Origin: Patescibacteria group bacterium
GTDB taxonomy: Bacteria > Patescibacteriota > Minisyncoccia > Phycocordibacterales > Phycocordibacteraceae
Direction of reading: 5' to 3'
Assembly: GCA_018971045.1 (NCBI GenBank)
Contig: JAGWVF010000003.1
Coordinates: forward strand, 42,793 to 106,792
DNA length: 64,000 nucleotides
Below the pieces are notes generated by a model that ran no database searches, was not told the DNA's origin, and saw only the letters and a list, made by a program, of their open reading frames with translations. Positions 32,280 to 60,072 of the stretch are shown piece by piece. The translations under genes and the position numbers were made by a program. The number at the start of each line of letters is the position of its first letter. The stretch's first letter is position 1.

Positions 32280-32386
32280 TATACTTCGTATCGAAGATTT
32301 CGTACCATACTGCCCCTAGGGCCGACCAGTACCGGTTCTTGGTGTCACAATCGCACTGCGCTGGTAGCATGAGATCTCGCAACCTA

Positions 32387-32977
32387 CTACCGACGGGCGA
32401 GAAATGGGTTTGGCTCATCAAAAGTGAGATGTATGACAGTGTCTTTGGAAAGATTGTCAGGATGAATACCGTAAACCATCTCATATATCTCACCTGCTCC
32501 ACAGAATTTCGCACTTTCCCAATCAAAACCTAGTTTCTCGGCGGCGGATCTCACCTGTTCTTCGTCAGGTCCTTCGATTTCAACATATGGCTTTAAATGC
32601 GGCCACGTATCGATGTCGACCTCCACGCCATCGAGTTCCCATCTCTCTCGAAGAGTCTCCGAATAGTTCGTCATCCGCGCTCCAAGCGCTTTCATAAATT
32701 CAGCACCGCGTTCCATATCTGAGATTGTAAATTCAACTTCTTTTTGTTGGTCTATGGTCGCCTCGGGCGGGATCTTCTTATACGCCATAGTCACCTTATC
32801 GCCTTCGTCCCGTACTCGCACCCATTCCCAAAAATCTCGACCGAGACTTTGCAAATCGAAATTCACGCGGCGCTGCTTGTATTCGTTGCGTAAAAGATTC
32901 GCGCCAAGCGCTTTAAGCTTATTTCTGAACGCGTCCTTATCGACATCTAGAAATGTCGCCTCGTATTCCGTCTGCAT
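32387..32977 (-). CDS. CYTH-domain protein (class IV adenylyl cyclase / triphosphate tunnel metalloenzyme-like)
   Basis: 196 aa; N-terminal EYEATFLDVD (ExE tunnel motif), alternating charged beta-strands typical of CYTH. Confidence 0.5.
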   Translation of the reverse strand: MQTEYEATFLDVDKDAFRNKLKALGANLLRNEYKQRRVNFDLQSLGRDFWEWVRVRDEGDKVTMAYKKIPPEATIDQQKEVEFTISDMERGAEFMKALGARMTNYSETLRERWELDGVEVDIDTWPHLKPYVEIEGPDEEQVRSAAEKLGFDWESAKFCGAGEIYEMVYGIHPDNLSKDTVIHLTFDEPNPFLARR

Positions 32978-33077
32978 GGTGCAATAGTATCATTTCATAC
33001 TGTTAGGGATGGGTCGGCCTTCTAGTATTTGCGGCCTTTGGCCGCTTTCGTAGCATAAATCGGTATAGAATAGGATT

Positions 33078-33989
33078 ATGAACATCTTCCGAAGTCAGCT
33101 CGTCACATATCTGCGCACACTCCTTCCTGCTATGGGTGAAGCGAACGTGTCGTTCCCACCGCAAGGCATGAGTAGCCATGTGTTTTTCTTAACCTCCGGC
33201 GATACGGCGTACGCGGTGAAATACGGTCCTGATGCAACCAAAGACGTGCCCACCCTCACGCTTATTCACGAGTGCGGTACCCGGGTGCCGGTGCCCGAGG
33301 TGGTAACCGAGTTCGTTTTCGAAAGCGTACCCGTTTTGGTTATGACATGCATTCAATTTCCGCTACTTGATACGGTGGCAGTGACCGAGCTTCCGCTCTA
33401 TATTCCGAGCATGGTATCCGTGATGCGCAAGCTCCACACGATTACGAATCCGGTGCCACGCGTACTCTCCGCGGCAAAAGATCTTCCCTCGTGGCAAGAG
33501 TATCTGCTCGCGCAATTCGATGGCCGGACGATCGATTGGACTGAAGTACTCGACCGCCCAACGCTCGATCGCGCGCTCGTCGCCGAAGCGCTTGCACGGC
33601 ATCACGCCACACTCTCCACCTTCGAGCTCAAGCTGCCCGAGTATGCCCTGCTCCACACAGACTTCAATCAGCGCAACTTGTTTGTCAATTCAACAACAAG
33701 ATCTATCAGCGGTGTCATCGACTGGGAAGATGCCGTGTTCGGCGATCCGATATATGATTTTTCCCGCATACGCATGCTCCTTTGGCACTTCGATCTTCCT
33801 GATTCGGTCGTGCGGACATACGACGAGCTCATGCGCTATACCGATGCCGAGCACAGGCGCGAGCGTCTCTACTGGACCGGACGAGTCATCCAATATCTCG
33901 CGTGGTATTCCGAGGAGGATACGCCGTTTAATACCGCACGCATTGCATTGCATCAAAAATACTTGCACACATTGCTGAATAACCCATAA
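33078..33989 (+). CDS. aminoglycoside/choline-kinase-type phosphotransferase (APH family)
   Basis: Brenner motif HTDFNQRN and VIDWEDAVFGDPIYD (DxE...GDP) block. Confidence 0.65.
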   Translation: MNIFRSQLVTYLRTLLPAMGEANVSFPPQGMSSHVFFLTSGDTAYAVKYGPDATKDVPTLTLIHECGTRVPVPEVVTEFVFESVPVLVMTCIQFPLLDTVAVTELPLYIPSMVSVMRKLHTITNPVPRVLSAAKDLPSWQEYLLAQFDGRTIDWTEVLDRPTLDRALVAEALARHHATLSTFELKLPEYALLHTDFNQRNLFVNSTTRSISGVIDWEDAVFGDPIYDFSRIRMLLWHFDLPDSVVRTYDELMRYTDAEHRRERLYWTGRVIQYLAWYSEEDTPFNTARIALHQKYLHTLLNNP

Positions 33990-34011
33990 AACACATGATT
34001 ATCGTCAGTAG

Positions 34012-34371
34012 TCAGCCAACTTTCGCAATCCGTATCCCCACGACGCCGTACTTCTGCTCGTCTTCCTTTGAATAGAACTGTCGTATCTGATTGAGCAGAA
34101 ATTCTCGGCTTTCACCACCGAAAAGAGAAGGATCGAGGTCTGCAAAAAGCTCTTTGAACGATTGATGCCGAAGAAGTCCTACGACCTTCGCGCGTACCTT
34201 ATTCTCGGGATGCTTGCTCTCGCTGAATTCAATCTCGTCGCCGAGCGCGATCTGCTGGCGCTTTTCGTCGTAGAGGCGCGACTCAACGACCTTCGTGCCA
34301 GAAGCAATCTGGTTGAACGGCTCTGTCGATAATTTCATCTCGTGTTGCATACGTTTTTTATCAGACTCCAT
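34012..34371 (-). CDS. ASCH-domain protein
   Basis: 119 aa; EPFNQIASGTKVVESR...GDEIEF pattern of ASCH/PUA-like fold. Confidence 0.5.
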   Translation of the reverse strand: MESDKKRMQHEMKLSTEPFNQIASGTKVVESRLYDEKRQQIALGDEIEFSESKHPENKVRAKVVGLLRHQSFKELFADLDPSLFGGESREFLLNQIRQFYSKEDEQKYGVVGIRIAKVG

Positions 34372-34700
34372 GGTGGTTGCAGGGGGCCGACATATACTTT
34401 AGGACCCCCGAATTGATCTGCAGTAATATCAATAACGGTTTTGTCGGCGACTAAGAACGTATGATCATACTCTCCATACTTCCCTTGGGTAACTTCTCCT
34501 CCCAATCTCTTTTGGAGATACAAAGATGCAAGACCGCAGTTCCCATCTGGGAAGATATCTTTTGCTTTGCTTACAAAACGCGCAGTATCACCAACGTCTG
34601 TATAATTTCGATATAGCTCAATGAGCAAGTCTTGGTTGATCGATCCAGCCTCGAACTGTCTTCGAGCCTCAAACGCCGCCTTTTTATTGGAAACGCTCAT
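34335..34700 (-). CDS. hypothetical protein
   Basis: 121-aa ORF, codon usage consistent with neighbours, 37-bp overlap with ASCH gene; no recognisable motif. Confidence 0.3.
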   Translation of the reverse strand: MSVSNKKAAFEARRQFEAGSINQDLLIELYRNYTDVGDTARFVSKAKDIFPDGNCGLASLYLQKRLGGEVTQGKYGEYDHTFLVADKTVIDITADQFGGPKVYVGPLQPPWSLIKNVCNTR

Positions 34701-34788
34701 AAAATGATGGCCTCATCGGAAACCCGATGAGGCCATTTTAACATACCGCTCGCGTTTATCTTTTCAAGACCCTTAGAGATTCTGATTT

Positions 34789-35451
34789 TTGCTATACTTA
34801 CAGGACTACATGAAAAGAGTATATTTCATACGTCACGGAGAAAGTGAAGGGAACGCGGGACCCTTACGACGAGGGGCTGACGCTCCCTTGACTGAGCGGG
34901 GCAGAAATCAAGTATTGTCAGTGGTGAGCCGCCTTGCGACACTTCCCGTCGAGACTATTATCATCAGTAGTACCGATGTTCGTGCAAAAGAGACCGCAGA
35001 AATCATTCAGGATGCGTTACATAAAAACGTGACTGTATCCGAGCTATTTGTTGAGCGGCGGCGGCCTTCGGAGGTTTTTGGGCAACTTAAGAATTCTCCC
35101 ATATCGCGTCGTGTGGGTGATGCCATTAGAATAAATTTTCATATACCCGGATATCGCTTTTCCGATGAGGAAAACTTCGACGATCTAAAAAATCGAGCAC
35201 ACAAAGCGCTCACATTTCTATCTGAACAATCAGAATCTTCTTTAATTTGTGTAACGCATGGGTTTTTCATACGCATCCTCATCGCGTATGCACTACACAG
35301 CGAAACTTTGACGAGCGAAATTTGTGAACATCTCATACGCGCTCTAAATATGGAAAATGCGGGGATAACGATCCTTGATTACAACGAGGAGGACACTTCA
35401 TGGAAGCTTTTGACTTGGAATGATCACTCGCATTTATCAGAATCCGTTTAG
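34789..35451 (+). CDS. histidine phosphatase (phosphoglycerate mutase-like) family protein
   Basis: RHG catalytic motif VYFIRHGESEGN near N-terminus; CVTHGFFIR second His block. Confidence 0.75.
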   Translation: MLYLQDYMKRVYFIRHGESEGNAGPLRRGADAPLTERGRNQVLSVVSRLATLPVETIIISSTDVRAKETAEIIQDALHKNVTVSELFVERRRPSEVFGQLKNSPISRRVGDAIRINFHIPGYRFSDEENFDDLKNRAHKALTFLSEQSESSLICVTHGFFIRILIAYALHSETLTSEICEHLIRALNMENAGITILDYNEEDTSWKLLTWNDHSHLSESV

Positions 35452-35596
35452 TAATTAGGAACCTTGATCCCTTACGCTCGCCAATCGTTAAACAGATATT
35501 TGAAAATATCGGCAACGACAGGTGGAGTGGCCGCCAGGTATATGGGTGGCCTGGAGGCGCAACATACGCCGCGACTTTTGCGCACGTGATGCCGAG

Positions 35597-35661
35597 CGGT
35601 ACCGTACTCGTCCCGACGGGGGACGGTATTGGTTCCTGGCGTCACAACCGTGTTGCGGGGG
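35597..35661 (+). repeat. intergenic hairpin repeat, copy R1 (family of three)
   Basis: cggtaccgtactcgtcccgacgggggacggtattggttcctggcgtcacaaccgtgttgcggggg; 63/65 identical to R2; imperfect palindrome GGTACCGTAC...GTCCC/GGGAC...GGTA; lies between convergent genes. Confidence 0.7.
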
Positions 35662-35696
35662 TCATAGACGAATCGGACTTTCTACGACCTAGATGC

Positions 35697-36257
35697 TCAA
35701 GTTCGATTCCTGTCCCCATTTTCGCGTATCATTTCTTCATATTCATGAATAGATGATAGTCCCATCTCTGCTCGCCGCGTGTCGATCTCTCGCGGATCTT
35801 CAAAGGGAAAGAATGATATGGATCCATCCTCGTTTATCGCGCTGTATTGCGTCCCGTACCGTTGCGGCCTCCCTTCCCGCACCAGCAATTTGTCGGTGAT
35901 AAATGCCGCATGAGACGTGTCAACGTCCTCTGTCTCAGAGGCAAGGATGGCATTTGCAACTTGATCCATAAATCCAGGATCGTCGGAATGCAAGACGAGC
36001 GCAATGAATGCCCGGTAGGCATCCTCACCAACAAGTCGTATCTTTGGAAATTCGATTTCAAATATCCTGCGCGCCTCTTCTGTGCGTGCATGAATCGCGT
36101 TATTTATATCTTCAAGACTTAGCGTCCCTGCTTTATATTGTTTTAAGTCCTCCTGATCCTCCGCGAGCAACTGGAGAAGATGCTCAGATAATCCAAAGTC
36201 TCTCATGTTTCGATTCTCGTGCTCGTTATTTTGATATTGAGCTTTGGTACTCAGCAA
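35697..36257 (-). CDS. hypothetical protein
   Basis: 186 aa, acidic; overlaps upstream NTase gene by 32 bp; no family recognised. Confidence 0.35.
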   Translation of the reverse strand: MLSTKAQYQNNEHENRNMRDFGLSEHLLQLLAEDQEDLKQYKAGTLSLEDINNAIHARTEEARRIFEIEFPKIRLVGEDAYRAFIALVLHSDDPGFMDQVANAILASETEDVDTSHAAFITDKLLVREGRPQRYGTQYSAINEDGSISFFPFEDPREIDTRRAEMGLSSIHEYEEMIRENGDRNRT

Positions 36258-36639
36258 TAAGTTCTATGTCGCGGAAGTCTTTCGGTCTGGCGAGTATGCG
36301 CTTTATTTCGACGAGTTTCTCGAGCGGCAGAAATGGTATGCCGTCAATCATCTGTGAATCGGCAATAAGCGCGGCGGGGTCAGGATGATGGCCGCCGTAC
36401 CAGAAGTCCCTATAGACCTCCACTTCTCCACGACTAAGCCGTTCCCGTATCCGTCCTTCTATCTCGATTTTCTCAAATGTCCAACCCGCAACGCGAAGCT
36501 CATCGAACACGCGCGGCGACACGATCAGGTCTATGTCGCCGATTTCTCGAATACCGAGCGCTCCAAGAATTCCACTTCCAAACACAAGATACTCTCCGTC
36601 TGGCAGATTGAGCTCCCTCACTTTTTCAGACACGTTCAT
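36226..36639 (-). CDS. nucleotidyltransferase-fold protein (minimal NTase/MNT-like)
   Basis: 137 aa; GSGILGALGIREIGDIDLIV = GS...D-x-D NTase motif. Confidence 0.5.
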   Translation of the reverse strand: MNVSEKVRELNLPDGEYLVFGSGILGALGIREIGDIDLIVSPRVFDELRVAGWTFEKIEIEGRIRERLSRGEVEVYRDFWYGGHHPDPAALIADSQMIDGIPFLPLEKLVEIKRILARPKDFRDIELIAEYQSSISK

Positions 36640-36756
36640 ATGATGAATGTATCATCAAAACAAAGGAAAAGCTCGCCACTTTTTTATAGTGCGCAATAAC
36701 CGCTTGACTAATCGGATACTTTCGGATAGTATCGGATATATAGTCAATATACACAT

Positions 36757-37803
36757 ATGGAAGATCGCCTCTCAAAACGCATCAAGCTCACCCCGAGCAT
36801 TCTGAAGAAAATCGCCTTCATCGACGAGTTCAAAGGCCGCTGGCGCGGCACGGCTGAGATGAGCCCGAAGATACTCGACCGTCTGCGCGCCTCGGTCATC
36901 ATCACCTCGACCGGATCCTCAACCCGCATCGAAGGTTCGGCTCTAAGCGACGAAGAAGTCGCGCGGCTCCTACGAGGGTTAAAATCGAAGCCGCCGGTCG
37001 GTCGTGACGAAGAAGAGGTTGCCGGGTATGCCGATCTTCTTGGTCGGATATTCGATCACTATTCTGACCTTTCACTATCCGAGAGCCGCATTCTCCAGTT
37101 CCATGAGATTCTCCTCCACTACGCCAAGAAGGACGCGCTCCACAAGGGCGCGTACAAGACGACCGACAATGTCGTCGTAATGCGCGGCGAGAAGGGCGAG
37201 GAGATTGTCCTCTTCCGTCCCACTCCACCGTACCTCGTGAAGAAGGAGATGGATGACTCCATTGCATGGTTTGATGACGCGCACGACCAGCATCCGCTTC
37301 TCGCCATCGCCAACTTCATCTTCGAGTTTCTCGTGATCCACCCTTTCCACGACGGGAATGGGCGACTCTCGCGTGCGCTCACGAATCTGTTCCTCTTGCG
37401 CGCCGGATACGGCTATACTCCCTCTGTTTCGCTCGACGAGATTATCGAAGAGCGCAAGACTGATTATTATCTCGCCCTCCGCCAGACACAGAAACATCAC
37501 AAGACAGACAACGAGGACATTACGCCCTGGACTGAGTTCTTGCTCGATGCGCTCCTTGAGCAGTCGATGCGCGCCGAGAAGCTCCTCGGAGAGAAACATC
37601 CGGAGATGCTTCTCTCGTCCAAGCAACTCGCTGTTTTTGAGCTCTTCGCAGGTGGCGAGGAGCTCTCGGTGCGCGAGATATACGATCGCCTCGATGGCGC
37701 TATCGCCGTGCCGACCATCAAGAAGACTCTTCTGCGTCTTATGAGCCATCTGCTTATCATGCGTCTCGGCCAAGGTCGCGCAACACGGTATCGTAAGATA
37801 TAA
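36757..37803 (+). CDS. Fic/DOC family protein (AMPylator-type)
   Basis: Canonical Fic motif HPFHDGNGRLSRAL; 348 aa with C-terminal winged-helix-like segment. Confidence 0.85.
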   Translation: MEDRLSKRIKLTPSILKKIAFIDEFKGRWRGTAEMSPKILDRLRASVIITSTGSSTRIEGSALSDEEVARLLRGLKSKPPVGRDEEEVAGYADLLGRIFDHYSDLSLSESRILQFHEILLHYAKKDALHKGAYKTTDNVVVMRGEKGEEIVLFRPTPPYLVKKEMDDSIAWFDDAHDQHPLLAIANFIFEFLVIHPFHDGNGRLSRALTNLFLLRAGYGYTPSVSLDEIIEERKTDYYLALRQTQKHHKTDNEDITPWTEFLLDALLEQSMRAEKLLGEKHPEMLLSSKQLAVFELFAGGEELSVREIYDRLDGAIAVPTIKKTLLRLMSHLLIMRLGQGRATRYRKI

Positions 37804-37805
37804 AT

Positions 37806-38282
37806 ATGAACTTAAATCTGACCAAAGAAGAGTTCGTCGAATTGCTCCAGGTCGTGTATTTAGGTACCTATGTCCGCAACGCGGTACGCGAGCAAGAAGG
37901 AGAATACGACCACGCACGAGATGAGGCGCTGGGAAATAGGTTATATCGCATTGCTCTCGAACTCGGAGTACCGGGGATTGAACAGGATGAAAAGTACAAG
38001 TATGTCGGACCATCAAACGCTCTCGAGAAGGAATGGCACGATATCATCGAAGCGTATGAGGAGGATGAATTCTGGCACGAGCTTGAGGTTCTCCTTGGGA
38101 AACGCGACTTCTATCGAACGATGACACGAGAGGATTCCGAGACTCTGGAGAAAACCGGCTGGCTGCCTGAAAGAATTCACGACCTTTATGAGAAATATGC
38201 CGATGAATTCGAGAAATTCGGAATTGAGCGTCTCGAGATTAATAAAAATGCTCCGATCTCAGACGTGCGGGACTTGCTGTAG
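37806..38282 (+). CDS. hypothetical acidic protein (co-transcribed with Fic)
   Basis: 158 aa, starts 3 nt after Fic stop; Glu/Asp-rich; followed by strong terminator. Confidence 0.35.
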   Translation: MNLNLTKEEFVELLQVVYLGTYVRNAVREQEGEYDHARDEALGNRLYRIALELGVPGIEQDEKYKYVGPSNALEKEWHDIIEAYEEDEFWHELEVLLGKRDFYRTMTREDSETLEKTGWLPERIHDLYEKYADEFEKFGIERLEINKNAPISDVRDLL

Positions 38283-38290
38283 TATTTAAA

Positions 38291-38330
38291 CACGAAAGCC
38301 GCGGCATACGTCGCGGCTTTCGTGTTCTTT
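38291..38330 (+). terminator. Rho-independent terminator
   Basis: cacgaaagccgcg-gcatacgt-cgcggctttcgtg 13-bp GC-rich stem followed by TTCTTT, 9 nt after stop of 37806..38282. Confidence 0.6.
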
Positions 38331-38347
38331 CGGAGCCAGATGCCTGT

Positions 38348-38463
38348 CGGTACCGTACTCGTCCCGACGAGGGACGGTATTGGTTCCTAGCGTCACAACC
38401 GTGTTGCCCGAGACGATACCGTACCAGACCATACAAGGTATATAAGGGTTCCTTGGTGACACT
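38348..38463 (+). repeat. intergenic hairpin repeat, copy R2 plus a degenerate tandem second unit
   Basis: 38348..38408 near-identical to R1; 38412..38463 (gataccgtaccagacc...gggttccttggtgacactcc) is a diverged second copy of the same unit. Confidence 0.65.
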
Positions 38464-38639
38464 CCTCCCTCTTTATTTTATGGGGGTCGGTATGGCTCGG
38501 CTTTCAAACATTTGCAACGTCTTCGCTTGCTTTAAGCGGCCGAATAAGGGCGGCAGTACCGTACCCAGCAAATACATAGGACTACCCTATGTAGACCTCG
38601 ATACTACAATCGACTCAAGGATAGATTTCTATACCTTCA

Positions 38640-39236
38640 TTAACGCTTGGAAGCAATAATATCAAATACGTGCCAAAACTTATCCGGGCCAGTTGCCGTG
38701 GGACGAATGCCTTTCTTTTCGAGAAGCTTGTGTATCACATAAGAAGAAAAAAGTGACTTGACTTGCTCTCTTGTATGGAAGCTCATATCTGTGCGCTTTG
38801 ACCATTCGTCCTCTGGACCAAATAACTGACCCACAAACACACCATCTTCTTTTAGGGAAGAGGTCATACTCGCAAATACATCTGCAAAAGTCTCGGGGTT
38901 ATTAAATGGTAACGAGTATCGCGCGTTTATCAAAATAAAATGATTGGGAGGAAATGGAAAATTATCGAACTTGGTTATTTCAAGATCAATAGGATCCCTG
39001 TCTTGAAGCAAATATTGCTTAACGTCTGGATTTGAATCCACAGCTGTAACTGTGTATCCAAGACTTGAAAGATAATAGGCTTCATTCAACGCTCCGGCTC
39101 CCAAATCGAGTACCGGACCGTCTCCTTGAACATACAATAACGCCTCGACCAATAATTTGCTTGGTTGATTATTTGCGGTTTTTGCGAGATATTCTTTCCA
39201 CACCACTACTACAATTCTATCCGAAAATCGGAGCAA
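38640..39236 (-). CDS. class I SAM-dependent methyltransferase (TehB-like small MTase)
   Basis: Motif I VLDLGAGALNEAYYLSSLGYTVTAVD; 198 aa. Confidence 0.65.
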   Translation of the reverse strand: MLRFSDRIVVVVWKEYLAKTANNQPSKLLVEALLYVQGDGPVLDLGAGALNEAYYLSSLGYTVTAVDSNPDVKQYLLQDRDPIDLEITKFDNFPFPPNHFILINARYSLPFNNPETFADVFASMTSSLKEDGVFVGQLFGPEDEWSKRTDMSFHTREQVKSLFSSYVIHKLLEKKGIRPTATGPDKFWHVFDIIASKR

Positions 39237-39295
39237 AAAGAAGCCCTCGCAACAAGCGAGGGCAATTACCTAAGACTCTCTGAAGAAATGTGTGT

Positions 39296-39730
39296 TCAGT
39301 TGTTCGTCACGGATGTCGGTCTTGAGTCAAGTTCATCCGGCGACCACCACGCACAGGATGACTGGGAGCAGCAATCGGCATTGAGATTTCCGAAGCGCTT
39401 CACATTCATCGCCGGATCGGGATTCGGCACATGATGCAAGAACTGGCCGAAATTTTCCTTGCAGAACGCCTCGTATTCGCGAGTGTGCAGGATATGGGCA
39501 TGCCATACCTCGTCACCATCAAGCGGCGGCAGAACGTACAGGTTGCGGTTCGCGCTGATGTAGGCCAGGTATTCCCGATATTCAGCGAGTGCCGCACCGA
39601 TACGCTCTTGCGACCAGTCTGGGTGGTCTTTCGCAACACGGACCGCCACAAAAGAAAGATCGGCGGACATGATGGCAGCTGCAGAACTTCTGGCGCTACT
39701 GATAGACGCCAATGAGATTTCGCTTTTCAT
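39296..39730 (-). CDS. hypothetical protein
   Basis: 144 aa; His/Cys/Trp-containing C-terminal half (WHAHILHTREYEAFC...CCSQSSCAWW); no family recognised. Confidence 0.35.
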   Translation of the reverse strand: MKSEISLASISSARSSAAAIMSADLSFVAVRVAKDHPDWSQERIGAALAEYREYLAYISANRNLYVLPPLDGDEVWHAHILHTREYEAFCKENFGQFLHHVPNPDPAMNVKRFGNLNADCCSQSSCAWWSPDELDSRPTSVTNN

Positions 39731-39923
39731 AACAAAGATCCTTTTCTAGCTAGAGTTGAAGAGAACGGTCTGGAGCACGTCTACTCCAGAGACAACAATA
39801 GCACAGAAGTTACCTATGAATCAACTGTACGGAAATCATTTTGCGCATAATTGCAACACGGAACTGAGCCGAATACGAGAATAGGAATCGAACTGGATAT
39901 ATGTTGTAAATGCTACGTAGCAG

Positions 39924-39957
39924 AAAAAGCGCTCTACGTATGTAGGCGCTTTTTCTG
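39924..39957 (-). terminator. bidirectional Rho-independent terminator downstream of tRNA(CAT)
   Basis: aaaaagcgc-tctacgtatgtag-gcgcttttt: 9-bp stem with A/T tracts on both sides. Confidence 0.55.
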
Positions 39958-40026
39958 GTGATTATGGGGACCGGTACAGTACCCGTTTTGACGGGCGTCG
40001 GTACTGGTTCCTGGCGTCACAACCGT
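39958..40026 (+). repeat. intergenic hairpin repeat, copy R3 (diverged), overlapping the 3' end of tRNA(CAT)
   Basis: ggggaccggtacagtacccgttttgacgggcgtcggtactggttcctggcgtcacaaccgtgttgcggggg; 3' 30 nt identical to R1; hairpin arm shows compensatory changes relative to R1/R2. Confidence 0.65.
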
Positions 40027-40088
40027 GTTGCGGGGGCCGGAATCGAACCGGCGTCTGGAGGTTATGAGCCTCCCGAGGTACCTCTCCT
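40018..40088 (-). tRNA. tRNA-Met(CAU), initiator-like (fMet) features
   Basis: Manual cloverleaf: acceptor AGCGGGG/CCCCGCA with A1xA72 mismatch, U8 A9, D-stem GAGG/CCTC with A11:U24, anticodon stem GGAGG/CCTCC, loop CUCAUAA, 4-nt variable, T-arm GCCGG-TTCGATT-CCGGC, discriminator A; CCA not encoded. Confidence 0.65.
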
Positions 40089-40471
40089 CTACCCCGCTTT
40101 ATACGCCGCGGATTTCCGCAGCTTCTTCATTATACACAGCGGCACCCTTGCGGCAACCTGAGACACACGGAGCGGCGACTGCAGTCGCCGCTCTTTTGTC
40201 ACGCCTCTTCAAGTTTCCTCCTTGATTTCTCCTCTTCCTGAATGGCTTTGTTCAACCGCTTCAGCGAATCGCAGAAGGGCGAGACACACAAGAGGATGAC
40301 GAATCCTAGAGCGATCACGAATGGCGCGAAACAAATCGCCATGACTAAACCGATATACTTGAGAGCCTTCACTACCGTCTCCTTTCAGGCGAATAGACAT
40401 GCGCTGTCATCAACGCATACGCGTACAGTACAATGGAGTCGCGAGCGCGTCAAAGGCGCGGCGGCTCGAGA

Positions 40472-57376: not shown

Positions 57377-57465
57377 GGAGACGTGGCTGAGTGGTCGAAA
57401 GCACCTCGCTGCTAATGAGGCAGGGGAGAAATCCTCTCGTGGGTTCAAATCCCACCGTCTCCGCC
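57377..57465 (+). tRNA. tRNA-Ser(GCU)
   Basis: Acceptor GGAGACG/CGTCTCC, D-arm GGCTGAGTGGTCGAAAGC (Ser-type), anticodon loop CUGCUAA, long variable arm CAGGGGAGAAATCCTCTC, T-arm GTGGG-TTCAAAT-CCCAC, discriminator G. Confidence 0.85.
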
Positions 57466-57508
57466 GGATCGGCGACTTTGAACCTTAGATAATCGTAGTT
57501 ATATTAAT

Positions 57509-58210
57509 ATGCAAAAACGAACACTAAGCCAAATCAAAAAGGCGCTTCAAGAACTTTCAGAAAAAGGCTGGATTAAGTCTAATCGCAGTCACAACACTGG
57601 AATAGGTAAAACCCTAGAGGACTATCTTGGTATTACAGAAAACAATATTGCTCTGCCGGACTTTGGGGTAATGGAATTGAAATCGCAAAGAATCAATACT
57701 CTTTCAATGATGACATTATTCACAAAGAGCCCCGAAGGAATTACAAATTCTGAGATTCGAAAGCGTTTCGGTTATCCTGACCCAGAATTTCCAAAGATTA
57801 AGATCTTGCATCAAACAATCAGCGATGGTGAAAGGAACAAAATGGGTTTTCAAGCTACTGTCGATGAAAAACAAGGTAAACTTCTTATTCTCAAAAAGGG
57901 CAAGTTGCTAGGTTATTACAGTCTAGATTTTTTAAGGAAAAAAGCTTTGGAGAAAATAGGAAATGGTCTTATATTGGTTCGCGCAGAAACAAAGAAAATC
58001 CGCGGACACGAATATTTCCACTACAGAGACGCATATTTATTGAAAGAAATTGATCCTACTAAATTTCTTGACCATTCAAAATACGATATTCGTCTAGGTG
58101 TATATCATAGCGGTAAAAACGCTGGTAAACCCCACGATCATGGTTCTGCTTTCCGTATTACAGAAAAGTCCTTACCTCTCTTATTTAAAATTCAGAAAAA
58201 GATTCTCTAA
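57509..58210 (+). CDS. MvaI/BcnI-family type II restriction endonuclease-like protein (MutH-like PD-(D/E)xK)
   Basis: 233 aa (size class of R.MvaI/R.BcnI); N-terminal DNA-recognition-like block then PD...ELK motif (ALPDFGVMELKSQ); convergent with and 4-bp overlapping the MTase gene. Confidence 0.5.
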   Translation: MQKRTLSQIKKALQELSEKGWIKSNRSHNTGIGKTLEDYLGITENNIALPDFGVMELKSQRINTLSMMTLFTKSPEGITNSEIRKRFGYPDPEFPKIKILHQTISDGERNKMGFQATVDEKQGKLLILKKGKLLGYYSLDFLRKKALEKIGNGLILVRAETKKIRGHEYFHYRDAYLLKEIDPTKFLDHSKYDIRLGVYHSGKNAGKPHDHGSAFRITEKSLPLLFKIQKKIL

Positions 58211-60072
58211 TTCTTTCTTAGCACAACAATACTTTCTTTATTCATTGTTTCCTCTAAAGCACCTACAATATTCGTCGGGGAATTTTTGATTGGCATTCTT
58301 TTGCCCGGGATATTTCGAACAACTATATCCTCGCAAGTAAAACCGATTTTTTCTGCCAGTTCAGCAATAATAAAATCGGTTGGAATTCTAACTTGTTTTA
58401 CTAATCTATTGCCCACAACAAGACAAAAATATTTTTTAGGTTTTAAGATTGTATGTGCTTGTTTCAAACAGTCATTCAATCCAATATAAAAACTTAAAAC
58501 ATCCTTGGCTCTTACTTCATCCTGCTTTGCTATCTTCTCTAAAGATTCTTTAAGAAAGTCGGACGAAAGCATATGTGATAGGTTTTTGGTGGCTCTACCG
58601 CCAAGTAGTTCATTATCCACGCCAGAGGCATCGTTTGGGTCATTAAAAATATCAATCCACTGTGCCGAAAGACGAGAAAATTGTCCGTAAGCAACCGTGG
58701 TTCTACTATCTCCATATGGTGGAGAAGTAATAACGCAATCAATTGAATTTGGCTTTATGCCGGTTGTTTTTGATGAATCTCCATAAATAATTTTTGTCCA
58801 CGAATCTTTGTCGGCATCTTTATAAAATTCTGCCATTCCCGCTATATTTTTCTCGGCATTTTTGCGGAAGATCGCTAAGACATTCGGATCGTGTTTTTCA
58901 AGTTTCTCTCCTTTTACACGCACAAGTTTGAATTCTCCAGTTTTTGTGTTGGAGGAATAGCGAACAGTCTCACTAAAAGCAACCATTAAGAAACTTTGAA
59001 TTGATTCGTCTTTTATATCGCGTATGACTTTTTTCAACTTGGCAAGCTGAACAATTACTTTATCTTTAAACCAAAAATCTATATTCTTAAAATCTGGTCG
59101 CTTTATTTCATTATCTTTGATTTTTTCTACTCTATCAAGCAAAGCTAAATATACTTTTGTTAGTTTTTGTGGATTGATCGGGACTGTCTTTGCGTGAGCA
59201 AGAAAAATAGCCAAAGGATTAAGATCAATGCCGTAAGCATTTCTACCTATTAATCTACTTTCAACAAGAGCAGTGCCTGAACCGCAAAAAATATCACAAA
59301 TAGTGTCGCCCTTTTTGCTGTAAGTTTCTAATAATCTTCTGCCGACCTGCGGAATGAACATTGCGGGATAGGTGTGTATTCCGTGTGTATACGATTTTGT
59401 TTTTTCGCCTCTATAATCCCACGAATAATCTATTTTACGGACATATTTTTCAGTTCTTGATTGCCCTCGATCAAGTTGTGATTCAAGATTGCGAATTATT
59501 TTTACGACAACACCCCTAACTTCTACTTCGTCGCGATATATCGGGAATAAAGTCGGGTTTGCAGGTTGTAATCTAAACTTTCCATTCTCACGATAAAGTT
59601 TTTTTAGAGTTGCTTCGTTGTCATCAATTACGGCGACAACTGTTTGGCCGTTCTCTGCTACTTCTTGTTTTCGTATAACAACAATATCGCCATCAAAGAT
59701 ACCCTCATTAATCATACTGCTACCTAGAACGCGCAAAGCATAATGTTTGCCTTGCTGTCCAATTTCATCTTTTGTGATTGTGATAGTCTCGTCTGGAATT
59801 TCTATAGCTTCAATTGGCTGACCAGCGGCGATTACTCCAAGGATAGGAATCTCTATCATCTGTTTTGCCTCAACTGTCGAAACAGCACGAGGTTGGTTGT
59901 GTTCTTTGTTCAGAAATCCTGCCTCTTGTAACTTCGTGATGTAATAGTGGGAAGTAGAGACAGAGGCAAGTTTAAATTTTCGCTTGATTTCCTCAAGAGA
60001 GGGAGCATAGCCCCTCTTTGTCCTATAGGTTTTGATGAAATCAAGGACTTGTGCTTGCTTTTTTGTAAGCAT
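58207..60072 (-). CDS. fusion protein: LexA-like repressor (wHTH + S24 autopeptidase) N-terminal domain + SPPY-type (probable N4-cytosine) DNA methyltransferase
   Basis: Residues 1-195 align block-for-block with LexA: VLDFIKTYRTKRGYAPSLEEI (HTH), IPILGVIAAGQPIEA (cleavage-site region, AG), ALRVLGSSMINEGIFDGDIVVIRKQ (Ser nucleophile/Lys), VEVRGVVVKIIRNL (C-terminus). Residues ~250-621: motif I DIFCGSGT, motif IV CVITSPPYGD; single uninterrupted 621-aa frame. Confidence 0.7.
   Translation of the reverse strand: MLTKKQAQVLDFIKTYRTKRGYAPSLEEIKRKFKLASVSTSHYYITKLQEAGFLNKEHNQPRAVSTVEAKQMIEIPILGVIAAGQPIEAIEIPDETITITKDEIGQQGKHYALRVLGSSMINEGIFDGDIVVIRKQEVAENGQTVVAVIDDNEATLKKLYRENGKFRLQPANPTLFPIYRDEVEVRGVVVKIIRNLESQLDRGQSRTEKYVRKIDYSWDYRGEKTKSYTHGIHTYPAMFIPQVGRRLLETYSKKGDTICDIFCGSGTALVESRLIGRNAYGIDLNPLAIFLAHAKTVPINPQKLTKVYLALLDRVEKIKDNEIKRPDFKNIDFWFKDKVIVQLAKLKKVIRDIKDESIQSFLMVAFSETVRYSSNTKTGEFKLVRVKGEKLEKHDPNVLAIFRKNAEKNIAGMAEFYKDADKDSWTKIIYGDSSKTTGIKPNSIDCVITSPPYGDSRTTVAYGQFSRLSAQWIDIFNDPNDASGVDNELLGGRATKNLSHMLSSDFLKESLEKIAKQDEVRAKDVLSFYIGLNDCLKQAHTILKPKKYFCLVVGNRLVKQVRIPTDFIIAELAEKIGFTCEDIVVRNIPGKRMPIKNSPTNIVGALEETMNKESIVVLRKN

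Follow-up and report, generated by a model that had tools for sequence, protein, structure and literature searches.

Analysis of a 64,000-nt stretch of the Patescibacteria contig JAGWVF010000003.1 (here called the window) revealed four direct, co-oriented copies of an element of about 60 nt, here named E, all within a low-GC accessory region that terminates at a tRNA-Met(CAT) gene. In the most likely reading, a large serine recombinase (LSR) inserted small mobile gene islands one by one beside tRNA-Met, and the repeats are the conserved ends of these islands; we think it probable that E is the conserved element-side att arm of small integrative islands targeting the extreme 3' end of this tRNA gene. 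A sequence-only reading of the region had proposed att-site remnants of stepwise cassette acquisition, a REP/terminator-like family, or a small structured RNA. The first of these is favored: all copies lie in a single tRNA-Met-linked, low-GC, non-syntenic region, run in the same direction, have a common sharp boundary within the tRNA 3' end, and are linked to an LSR gene or LSR remnant. Taken as a whole, the sequence-only reading is supported in part. The region is organized as follows.

32302 to 32358, plus strand: E4 (R4), diverged fourth copy between S66 peptidase and CYTH genes (nhmmer family model, E = 1.1e-9; degenerate pattern match)
32387 to 35451: cassette E4-E1, with CYTH, APH kinase, ASCH, YunG-like and His_Phos_1 genes (Pfam)
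35463 to 35549, plus strand: LSR remnant of 29 aa, equivalent to aa 197 to 225 of the L024 LSR (tblastn, 58.6% identity, E = 2.8e-8)
35551 to 35596, plus strand: degenerate "class A" flank (compared with L028 and L024; blastn to L010, L011 and L013)
35597 to 35656, plus strand: E1 (R1), a GGTAC hairpin region and conserved 33-nt core ending in ...GTGTTGC
35657 to 35725, plus strand: right flank of E1, pseudo-tRNA-like (GGGGGTCATAGACGAATCGGACTTTCTACGACCTAGATGCTCAAGTTCGATTCC...), also following E in L013, L020, L033 and L044
35697 to 38282: cassette E1-E2, with DUF6624, NTase-like, Fic and hypothetical genes (Pfam)
38290 to 38325: bidirectional terminator-like hairpin resembling the LSR-gene terminator (class A; fold, blastn)
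38348 to 38407, plus strand: E2a (R2), with two mismatches to E1 and similarity stopping at ...GTGTTGC
38408 to 38540, plus strand: E2b, degenerate second unit (class 3 flank), also following E in L011, L027, L030, L031, L039, L045 and L046
38640 to 39730, minus strand: cassette E2-E3, with a methyltransferase and a 144-aa hypothetical gene (Pfam)
39835 to 39971: "class B" module accompanying E in many genomes (blastn, 75 to 90% identity to >30 loci; alignment; fold)
39972 to 40031, plus strand: E3 (R3), tRNA-proximal copy whose final 4 to 5 nt are tRNA positions 70 to 74 (antisense)
40028 to 40098, minus strand: tRNA-Met(CAT), the proposed integration target (ARAGORN; Rfam, 58.9 bits)

Three copies had been described from the sequence alone. 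These are real, but the count is four, since the diverged copy at 32302 to 32358 had been overlooked; it was recovered by nhmmer with E values of 7e-4 (three-copy model) and 1e-9 (family model). The reported identity of about 97% between R1 and R2 was confirmed (2 mismatches in 60 positions), as was the exact 30-nt core common to R1 and R3 (35631 to 35660 equals 40006 to 40035; 0/100 shuffles matched). R1 to R3 can also be delimited as 35589 to 35676, 38340 to 38427 and 39964 to 40051, direct repeats with 81% identity across 88 nt. R3 does not end at 40026, as previously given, but at about 40031 to 40036, and since the tRNA gene occupies 40027/8 to 40098 on the minus strand, R3 overlaps its 3' end as described. 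R1 has 10 nt in common with the tRNA 3' end (40027 to 40036, nine of them inside the exact 30-nt match) and additionally carries a degenerate T-arm-like stretch, and R2 has 5 nt of the tRNA 3' end. The degenerate tandem unit behind R2 is likewise real and is kept in other genomes. A position between convergent genes had been assigned to all three copies, which is not the case for R3, flanked by the tRNA and the gene at 39296 to 39730, both on the minus strand. Nor is the hairpin in front of R1 a clean terminator; it is a degenerate relic.

The flank at 35551 to 35596 is, judging from its sequence, a relic of the terminator and TACGTGATGCC spacer with which L028 and L024 continue behind the stop codon of the LSR. 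Furthermore, 38288 to 38407 matches positions 2306 to 2418 of L024 and 608 to 712 of L028 in blastn. Within the class B module are a GGAATCGAACTGG motif resembling a tRNA T-arm and, at 39922 to 39956, a bidirectional terminator, and we propose that the pseudo-tRNA-like right flank of E1 represents an element-side P' arm. GC content is 46 to 53% between kb 30 and 40 of the window (48 to 50% in the accessory region with the four copies), compared with about 57% in the surrounding genome, and the gatA/ligA side of the locus is syntenic in 17 to 25 loci whereas the opposite side is variable. An intact tRNA gene at one end, direct repeats with a tRNA 3' fragment and this foreign composition with broken synteny agree with the Islander-type definition of a tDNA-integrated genomic island; of an integrase gene, the window retains the 29-aa LSR remnant. 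Homologues of the E4-E1 cassette genes occur in other arrays in varying gene order, Fic homologues lie between E copies also in L017 and L041, and the content of the E2-E3 cassette recurs in the independent contig L051.

An exact-pattern scan found E in 47 genome stretches, all from Patescibacteria (Paceibacteria, Kaiserbacteria and Parcubacteria); the pattern used for the scan explains part of the invariance of the core (ascertainment). E is typically present in one copy, which adjoins this tRNA-Met at its 3' end, and 29/65 copies directly adjoin the tRNA-Met 3' half. Co-oriented arrays exist in about 14 contigs, with a spacing of about 0.8 to 7 kb (mostly 1.3 to 3.4 kb) and a single orientation for all copies inside every array. 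The module to the left of E reaches 92% identity between genomes in which the neighboring core proteins share only 38%, and across 253 pairs its identity is unrelated to that of the core protein (r = 0.06), which indicates horizontal mobility of this module. Accessory genes such as Fic also reappear between E copies of other genomes in differing orders.

Similarity between copies ends abruptly past ...GTGTTGC, 4 to 5 bases within the tRNA 3' end. Among copies that are not tRNA adjacent, the information content is near maximal across CGGTACTGGTTCCTGGCGTCACAACCGTGTTGC and collapses one base later. The proposed crossover would lie at or adjoining the GC that closes ...GTGTTGC, between tRNA positions 69 and 70, so that the final four bases of the tRNA, its trailer (E) and a terminator would come from the inserted element. 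LSR att sites have an imperfect inverted repeat of about 40 to 50 bp centered on a dinucleotide; around the proposed site only a weak dyad was seen by eye, with TCnnnnCCG on each side (TCACAACCG ... CGGAATCGA, spaced 12 nt).

A 445-aa LSR gene was found upstream of E in six loci (L013, L015, L020, L024, L025 and L028), and the L024 protein contains the domains Resolvase (PF00239), Recombinase (PF07508) and Zn_ribbon_recom (PF13408) in Pfam; by sequence, the closest solved structures are the SPbeta and TP901-1 integrases. In L028, the LSR stop codon, terminator, E and tRNA are directly joined in this order. Intact LSR genes also lie beside E in L052, L054, L056 and L057, and remnants in L023, L033 and the window (35463 to 35549). 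An LSR or fragment thereof occurs in only 8/47 genome blocks, each block covering only 8 kb, and many E copies with an "LSR terminator" flank lack an LSR trace. In the window, tblastn recovered only the remnant and no intact recombinase was seen among the roughly 40 open reading frames, a subset, scanned with Pfam.

tblastn confirmed 486 metagenomic relatives of the LSR, 80 of which were examined at the locus level. Where a downstream tRNA was detected in these 80, it and the LSR gene were convergent in nearly all cases; the tRNAs were Met, Ser, His, Arg, Lys and Gly, with a gap of sometimes only about 95 to 140 nt. At tRNA-Met, the E core is matched in 33/33 positions at 100% and 93% LSR identity, and in about 28, 26, 22 and 15 of 33 at 80, 73, 64 and 63%. 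The tRNA end is constant while the E core diverges with the LSR in most LSR-adjacent tRNA-Met loci compared. The exception is L028, with an identical core and an LSR of only 70% identity (the C-terminal 198 aa alone being comparable).

The enzyme acting on these sites would be the 445-aa LSR, the intact gene of which reads toward the tRNA and is followed by the bidirectional terminator, E and the tRNA, and we infer that it cuts at E, for which the divergence of E along with the LSR in most loci gives indirect support. Newcomers would enter at the tRNA-proximal junction and displace older elements outward, and such serial insertion would leave co-oriented E copies, each followed by the left arm of the next element (pseudo-tRNA or degenerate E). 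The window would then represent at least three stacked units, E4...E1, E1...E2 and E2...E3-tRNA. Its array is now probably a decayed, immobile relic, since the sole recombinase trace is the 29-aa remnant beside E1. Long direct repeats do not arise in canonical LSR integration, and attL/attR are not reused; arrays of whole E copies would therefore need promiscuous (Ccr-like) action or the help of homologous recombination. Circular and empty-site forms were not seen. Transcripts of the tRNA and of the cassettes may, in addition, terminate at the GGTAC hairpin and the terminator, but selection on RNA structure was not detected.

Alternatively, E could be common to the chromosome and to recombinase-less cassettes of 1 to 3 kb, which one LSR, encoded either by merely one of the cassettes or by a platform gene, captures, excises and shuffles in trans at tRNA-Met; we regard this as unlikely. 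The short E spacing noted above, cassettes of one to five genes without recombinases, Fic standing alone as a one-gene unit between two E copies of L041, the same cassettes in differing order among genomes, an orientation as the tRNA for the majority of cassette genes, and class A terminator-E modules behind non-LSR genes (e.g., window R2 and L011) would fit such a platform. However, neither excision products nor circles were seen, and no repeated site occurs in the 3- to 6-kb LSR-to-tRNA intervals of eight related loci. The LSR trace in the window is internal to the array, away from any fixed platform end, and the remnants in the window, L023 and L033 are equally compatible with decay of once-autonomous units. 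It is doubtful that Paceibacteria carry a serine-recombinase analogue of integrons, in which E would be the shared recombination site at a fixed tRNA-Met 3' position and an LSR acting in trans would gather, stack and exchange across species recombinase-less 1- to 3-kb cassettes of defense, toxin or resistance-type genes. The arrays do resemble integrons in that small cassettes are split by co-oriented, hairpin-capable sites of about 60 to 130 nt and carry accessory, toxin and resistance-type cargo. In contrast to integrons, no match to Phage_integrase, as expected of an IntI-type tyrosine recombinase, was found among the open reading frames scanned in and around the array, the associated recombinase being of the serine type. 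The attC core sites R'' (RYYYAAC) and R' (GTTRRRY), which bound an imperfect palindrome, are not present, since the fifth base of the end GTTGCGG is a C; ACAAC and GTTG in E are separated by only 3 nt, as read from the sequence. The cassettes here are also often multigene, in both orientations and terminator separated, the array is tRNA anchored, and the site is conserved in sequence, beyond structure alone.

It is improbable that E is chiefly a functional RNA or transcription element, i.e., a tRNA-Met 3' trailer and terminator module or a small RNA, with the extra copies as duplication by-products. The tRNA-Met gene does have its own promoter-like site (40129 to 40156, minus strand, promoter scan) and a strong bidirectional terminator past E on the tRNA strand, E folds somewhat better than shuffles (mean z of about -2 on the plus and -1.7 on the minus strand), and the inner hairpin retains its pairing although R1/R2, R3 and R4 have different sequences there. 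The differences of R3 from R1/R2 had been taken as compensatory changes implying structural selection, which fails over 54 copies: 81.9% of cells pair compared with 82.5% in shuffles, and 7 double changes were observed versus 13 expected. This covariation check is hence negative, with the reservation that the variable inner loop is imperfectly aligned and weak support could be missed. RNAalifold gave no consensus for the large hairpin, and on the tRNA-antisense strand pairing depends on G:U. Rfam cmscan of the window (E ≤ 1) and of eight loci (E ≤ 0.1) yielded no matches other than tRNA, group I intron, LOOT and sub-threshold ones driven by terminators; with neither an Rfam match nor a promoter-like site at the copies, the small-RNA proposal found no positive support. 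Furthermore, the core is kept equally well in non-tRNA copies, and the E sequence follows the LSR, not the host.

A REP/MITE-like dispersed repeat, or segmental duplication by homologous recombination without a site-specific recombinase, is hardly credible: the repeats (60 to 200 nt) would suffice for RecA-mediated Campbell insertion, palindromic GGTAC motifs are present, and short internal repeats flank a deletion difference between L011 and L047, but every window copy lies at one locus, all copies have the sharp right boundary, and the copies of one array fall into different flank classes and are therefore not local duplicates. Nor is E dispersed in a REP-like manner, as the complete 993-kb chromosome OY969413.1 contains one exact-pattern match and a 754-kb contig another one, a pattern that diverged copies would escape.

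As att arms of tRNA-Met islands, the E arrays are, in our best reading, comparable to the Dehalococcoides ssrA islands, SCC elements and tycheposons. At Dehalococcoides ssrA, tandem islands with a serine recombinase (DsiB), some units being integrase-less, have been described (PMC3146451). Both systems are tandem, lie downstream of a single tRNA-like gene, have as boundaries direct repeats that comprise the 3' end of this gene and some further conserved bases beside it, and have an LSR gene beside the repeat and some units without integrase ("cis-mobilizable", accretion). They differ in the target (tRNA-Met instead of ssrA), in the proposed crossover (4 to 5 nt from the tRNA 3' end instead of the T-loop), in the repeat (mostly extragenic and 60 to 200 nt instead of 20 bp), and in the far smaller units (1 to 3 kb) and host phylum (Patescibacteria) here; the second small serine recombinase and six-gene integration module were not seen. 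SCC/SCCmec elements (CcrAB; partly general knowledge, partly PMC3146451) likewise use a serine recombinase to enter a single conserved gene at its 3' end and form composite stacks, including recombinase-less pseudo-SCC units split by repeated integration-site sequences, but their target is the protein gene rlmH (orfX), their repeats are about 15 to 20 bp, and they use two recombinase subunits and measure 20 to 60 kb. In Prochlorococcus, newcomers displace older elements at tRNAs (bioRxiv 10.1101/2020.12.28.424599). These tycheposons share hypervariable, tRNA-adjacent islands from serial integration, in which fragmented integrases and partial tRNAs remain, and a minority use a large serine recombinase. 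Unlike E islands, most have tyrosine recombinases and replication modules, and their repeats are partial tRNAs, whereas E is chiefly a non-tRNA trailer element.

In Patescibacteria (CPR), with genomes of about 1 Mb, mobile elements and sources of accessory genes are poorly charted, and the repeats show how such tiny genomes gather accessory and defense genes. E beside tRNA-Met provides a phylum-wide, easily spotted marker of a hot spot for defense, toxin-antitoxin and modification genes, tied to one LSR clade whose relatives each lie beside a particular tRNA. It also yields natural sequences that are candidate att sites of a large and so far untested serine integrase family; enzymes of this class are employed in genome engineering. 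Finally, E arrays account for assembly breaks at the tRNA-Met locus in these genomes.

Repeat searches of the window returned a single family with 81% identity over 88 nt, including an exact 30-nt core at 35631-35660 and 40006-40035 that had no match in shuffled sequences. The three copies described in an earlier, sequence-only reading (R1 to R3) are thus real, but a further, diverged copy (R4) had been missed:

32302-32358, + strand, R4, diverged fourth copy
35589-35676, + strand, R1
38340-38427, + strand, R2
39964-40051, + strand, R3
40027/8-40098, - strand, tRNA-Met(CAT)

Since the tRNA-Met gene lies on the minus strand, R3 is located downstream of it on the tRNA's strand and covers its last bases. 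This agrees with the overlap proposed earlier; R3 itself ends ~9 nt further right than claimed and does not sit between convergent genes. The hairpins said to precede each copy are strong at R2 and R3 but degenerate at R1.

Alignment of 54 distinct copies of the ~60-nt repeat (here named E) revealed three parts: the block CGGTAC-W-GTAC, which is conserved; ~16-20 variable nt, usually able to pair; and the almost invariant CGGTACTGGTTCCTGGCGTCACAACCGTGTTGC. In copies not adjacent to a tRNA, information content is maximal through ...GTTGC and collapses one base later, a boundary that corresponds to the position between tRNA nucleotides 69 and 70. The sequence to its right falls into recurring classes, namely the tRNA itself, a pseudo-tRNA-like arm (common to R1, L013, L020, L033, and L044; L numbers denote genome or metagenome stretches fetched for relatives of E or of the recombinase described below), a degenerate second E unit (R2 and at least seven other loci), and a small number of others. 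Left of E, a bidirectional terminator is always present, and the left flanks likewise group into classes; in class B, the conserved module grows to ~200-330 nt irrespective of the neighboring gene. Two inverted motifs resembling a tRNA T arm, CCAGTTCGATTCC and GGAATCGAACTGG, lie within the conserved left-hand module, at 39851-39897 and 35697-35724 of the window and in the class B modules of L003, L020, L021, L041, and L044, and are accompanied further left by a TTCCTGCCCC...GGGGCGGGAA hairpin; together, these are probably relics of older junctions. A variant E at tRNA-proximal positions of arrays (L013, 3028-3097; L033, 316-385) has its distal core half swapped (CGGTACT-TGACACAAGC-TCACAACCGTGTTGC) with the proximal 15 nt retained and may mark a different half-site type.

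A degenerate pattern built to cover all four window copies was searched against species-representative genomes and matched 47 stretches, all from Patescibacteria (labeled Paceibacterota, Kaiserbacteria, Parcubacteria, or Minisyncoccia). Of 65 copies of E, 29 directly border one and the same tRNA-Met at its 3' half, and beyond this tRNA, on the side away from E, a synteny of genes for a 197-aa protein, gatA, and ligA is conserved; the same core genes are found to the right of the tRNA-Met in the window. Arrays of two to four co-oriented copies, spaced ~0.8-7 kb apart (mostly 1.3-3.4 kb), were present on ~14 contigs.

The Resolvase, Recombinase, and Zn_ribbon_recom domains of a 445-aa ORF linked to E identify its product as a large serine recombinase (LSR); among solved structures, the SPbeta and TP901-1 integrases are closest to it in sequence. 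The gene is located upstream of E on the same strand in L013, L015, L020, L024, L025, and L028, and in L028 the LSR stop codon is followed directly by the terminator of the LSR-associated left flank (class A), E, and the tRNA. In the window, R1 is preceded by a degenerate class A flank and, before that, by a 29-aa LSR fragment (35463-35549); R2 has a class A-type terminator and no LSR. A metagenome scan confirmed 486 LSR relatives. Among the 80 loci fetched, nearly every tRNA detected downstream is oriented convergently to the LSR gene. Close relatives adjoin tRNA-Met, and those with 55-60% identity adjoin tRNA-Ser, His, Arg, Lys, or Gly; the distance from stop codon to tRNA is just ~95-140 nt in some loci. 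Beside tRNA-Met, 33/33 positions of the E core are identical at 100% and 93% LSR identity, ~28/33 at 80%, 26/33 at 73%, 22/33 at 64%, and 15/33 at 63%. The core thus mostly diverges along with the LSR while the tRNA end is unchanged; as an exception, L028 has an identical core despite a 70% identical LSR. Two tRNA-Ser-linked relatives, L104 (12432-13584) and L078 (12846-13417), carry 63-nt and 30-nt direct repeats ahead of tRNA genes in small arrays similar to the tRNA-Met case, and L104 also contains a second LSR fragment.

The best-supported reading, based on LSR linkage, the sharp boundary, and tRNA-Met anchoring, is that E represents the element-side arm of a candidate att site of LSR-mobilized islands aimed at the tRNA-Met 3' end. 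A single insertion would give the order LSR...terminator, E, tRNA, as seen in L024, L028, L054, L056, and L057, and later insertions at the tRNA-proximal junction would leave E followed by the left arm of the next element, which is what R1 and R2 show. Serial insertion follows a similar logic in the Dehalococcoides ssrA islands (PMC3146451) and in tycheposons (bioRxiv 10.1101/2020.12.28.424599). The E module would join the class of tDNA-linked serine-recombinase islands. The window array is probably a decayed stack with no working recombinase, and among ~40 ORFs scanned there, no intact LSR or tyrosine recombinase was found. The earlier idea of att remnants from stepwise acquisition therefore stands as the leading explanation, although many E units lack any LSR trace. 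Further points against LSR islands are that canonical LSRs are not known to reuse occupied sites, that the site shows only faint dyad symmetry, that the intervals between LSR and tRNA in eight related loci contain no repeated site of ≥30 nt, and that no consistent distal direct repeat marks the other element end within 10 kb upstream of LSR relatives. An integron-like mode, in which an LSR would mobilize cassettes that lack a recombinase of their own, is considered unlikely; here the enzyme would work in trans. Identity of E with integron attC was rejected, as core sites are absent and no IntI was seen among the ORFs scanned.

The earlier reading also proposed a small structured RNA and took compensatory changes to imply selection on structure. 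Hairpin potential is real, and the E region folds somewhat better than shuffled sequences (mean z of about -2 for the plus and -1.7 for the minus strand), but the compensatory-change argument is unsupported: RNAalifold gave no consensus for the large hairpin, an explicit 16-pair model paired 81.9% of cells compared to 82.5% in shuffles with double changes below expectation, a known RNA family was rejected for want of an Rfam match, and no promoter-like site was found at E copies. Pairing derives from the conserved GTAC palindromes and pyrimidine-run/G-run composition, and much of it is G:U when the strand opposite to the tRNA is read; E is not a demonstrated RNA. In L041, a LOOT RNA (RF03000, 85 bits; 1311-1429, - strand) lies ~800 nt from an E copy, with no connection found.

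The REP-like family put forward for the copies in the window failed, since a complete 993-kb chromosome contains the exact E pattern once and E is therefore no dispersed repeat; being restricted to one locus, it is not a REP or MITE. A viral origin was dismissed, as the pattern had no match in IMG/VR. E is a genuine, phylum-wide putative recombination-site module and neither a chance repeat nor a REP element. As for strain variants differing in cassettes, exact-protein look-ups gave same-organism contigs only, broken at E. These independent assemblies have breakpoints exactly at E copies (L048 ends ~20 nt beyond the tRNA; L051 is a 4403-nt contig running from R1 to R3), and the E locus fragments short-read assemblies.

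How similar two loci are over the 160 nt left of E does not correlate with the identity of their neighboring core proteins (r = 0.06, 253 pairs), a sign of horizontal mobility; L026 and L038, for example, have 92% identical flanks versus 38% identical core proteins. The accessory genes of the window array are also found elsewhere, in arrays with other gene orders; L017 and L041 both have Fic flanked by E copies. Cargo near LSR relatives is rich in defense genes (Shedu, Type ISP restriction-modification, DNA methylases). The GC content of the window is ~57%, falling to 46-53% between positions 30 and 40 kb, where the accessory genes are small (NUDIX, CPT-like kinase, S66 peptidase, CYTH, APH, ASCH, YunG, His_Phos_1, DUF6624, NTase-like, Fic, and methyltransferase). 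The candidate lysS anchor at the island's far side was rejected, as the window has no lysS homolog. A separate two-gene restriction-modification island with 36-38% GC (57377-60072) lies directly 3' of tRNA-Ser(GCT); neither an LSR nor a repeat was seen there, although LSR relatives adjoin metagenomic tRNA-Ser genes. It comprises:

57509-58210, + strand, MvaI/BcnI endonuclease
58207-60072, - strand, unusual LexA_DNA_bind, Peptidase_S24, and N6_N4 methyltransferase fusion

Half-tRNA flanks considered as displaced att fragments proved to be whole tRNA-Met genes split by group I introns (RF00028). In several genomes, the intron lies in the anticodon loop of the E-adjacent tRNA-Met(CAT), and ARAGORN calls no tRNA at such genes:

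L006, 6671-6885
L029, 1027-1280
L045, 6544-6746
L015, 4965-5196

tRNA introns have been described in Patescibacteria (PMC13011429). Near intron-containing tRNA-Met genes, L012 (2203-2970; also L025 and L032) harbors an ORF of 255 aa that combines an HTH at the N terminus with a LAGLIDADG-like motif, LGLGLYWGEGYK, and may encode a homing endonuclease. The tRNA-Met of the window (40028-40098, - strand) may be of initiator, elongator, or Ile2 identity: its acceptor stem begins with an A1 x A72 mismatch, and its anticodon stem contains only two of the three G:C pairs that usually mark initiators.
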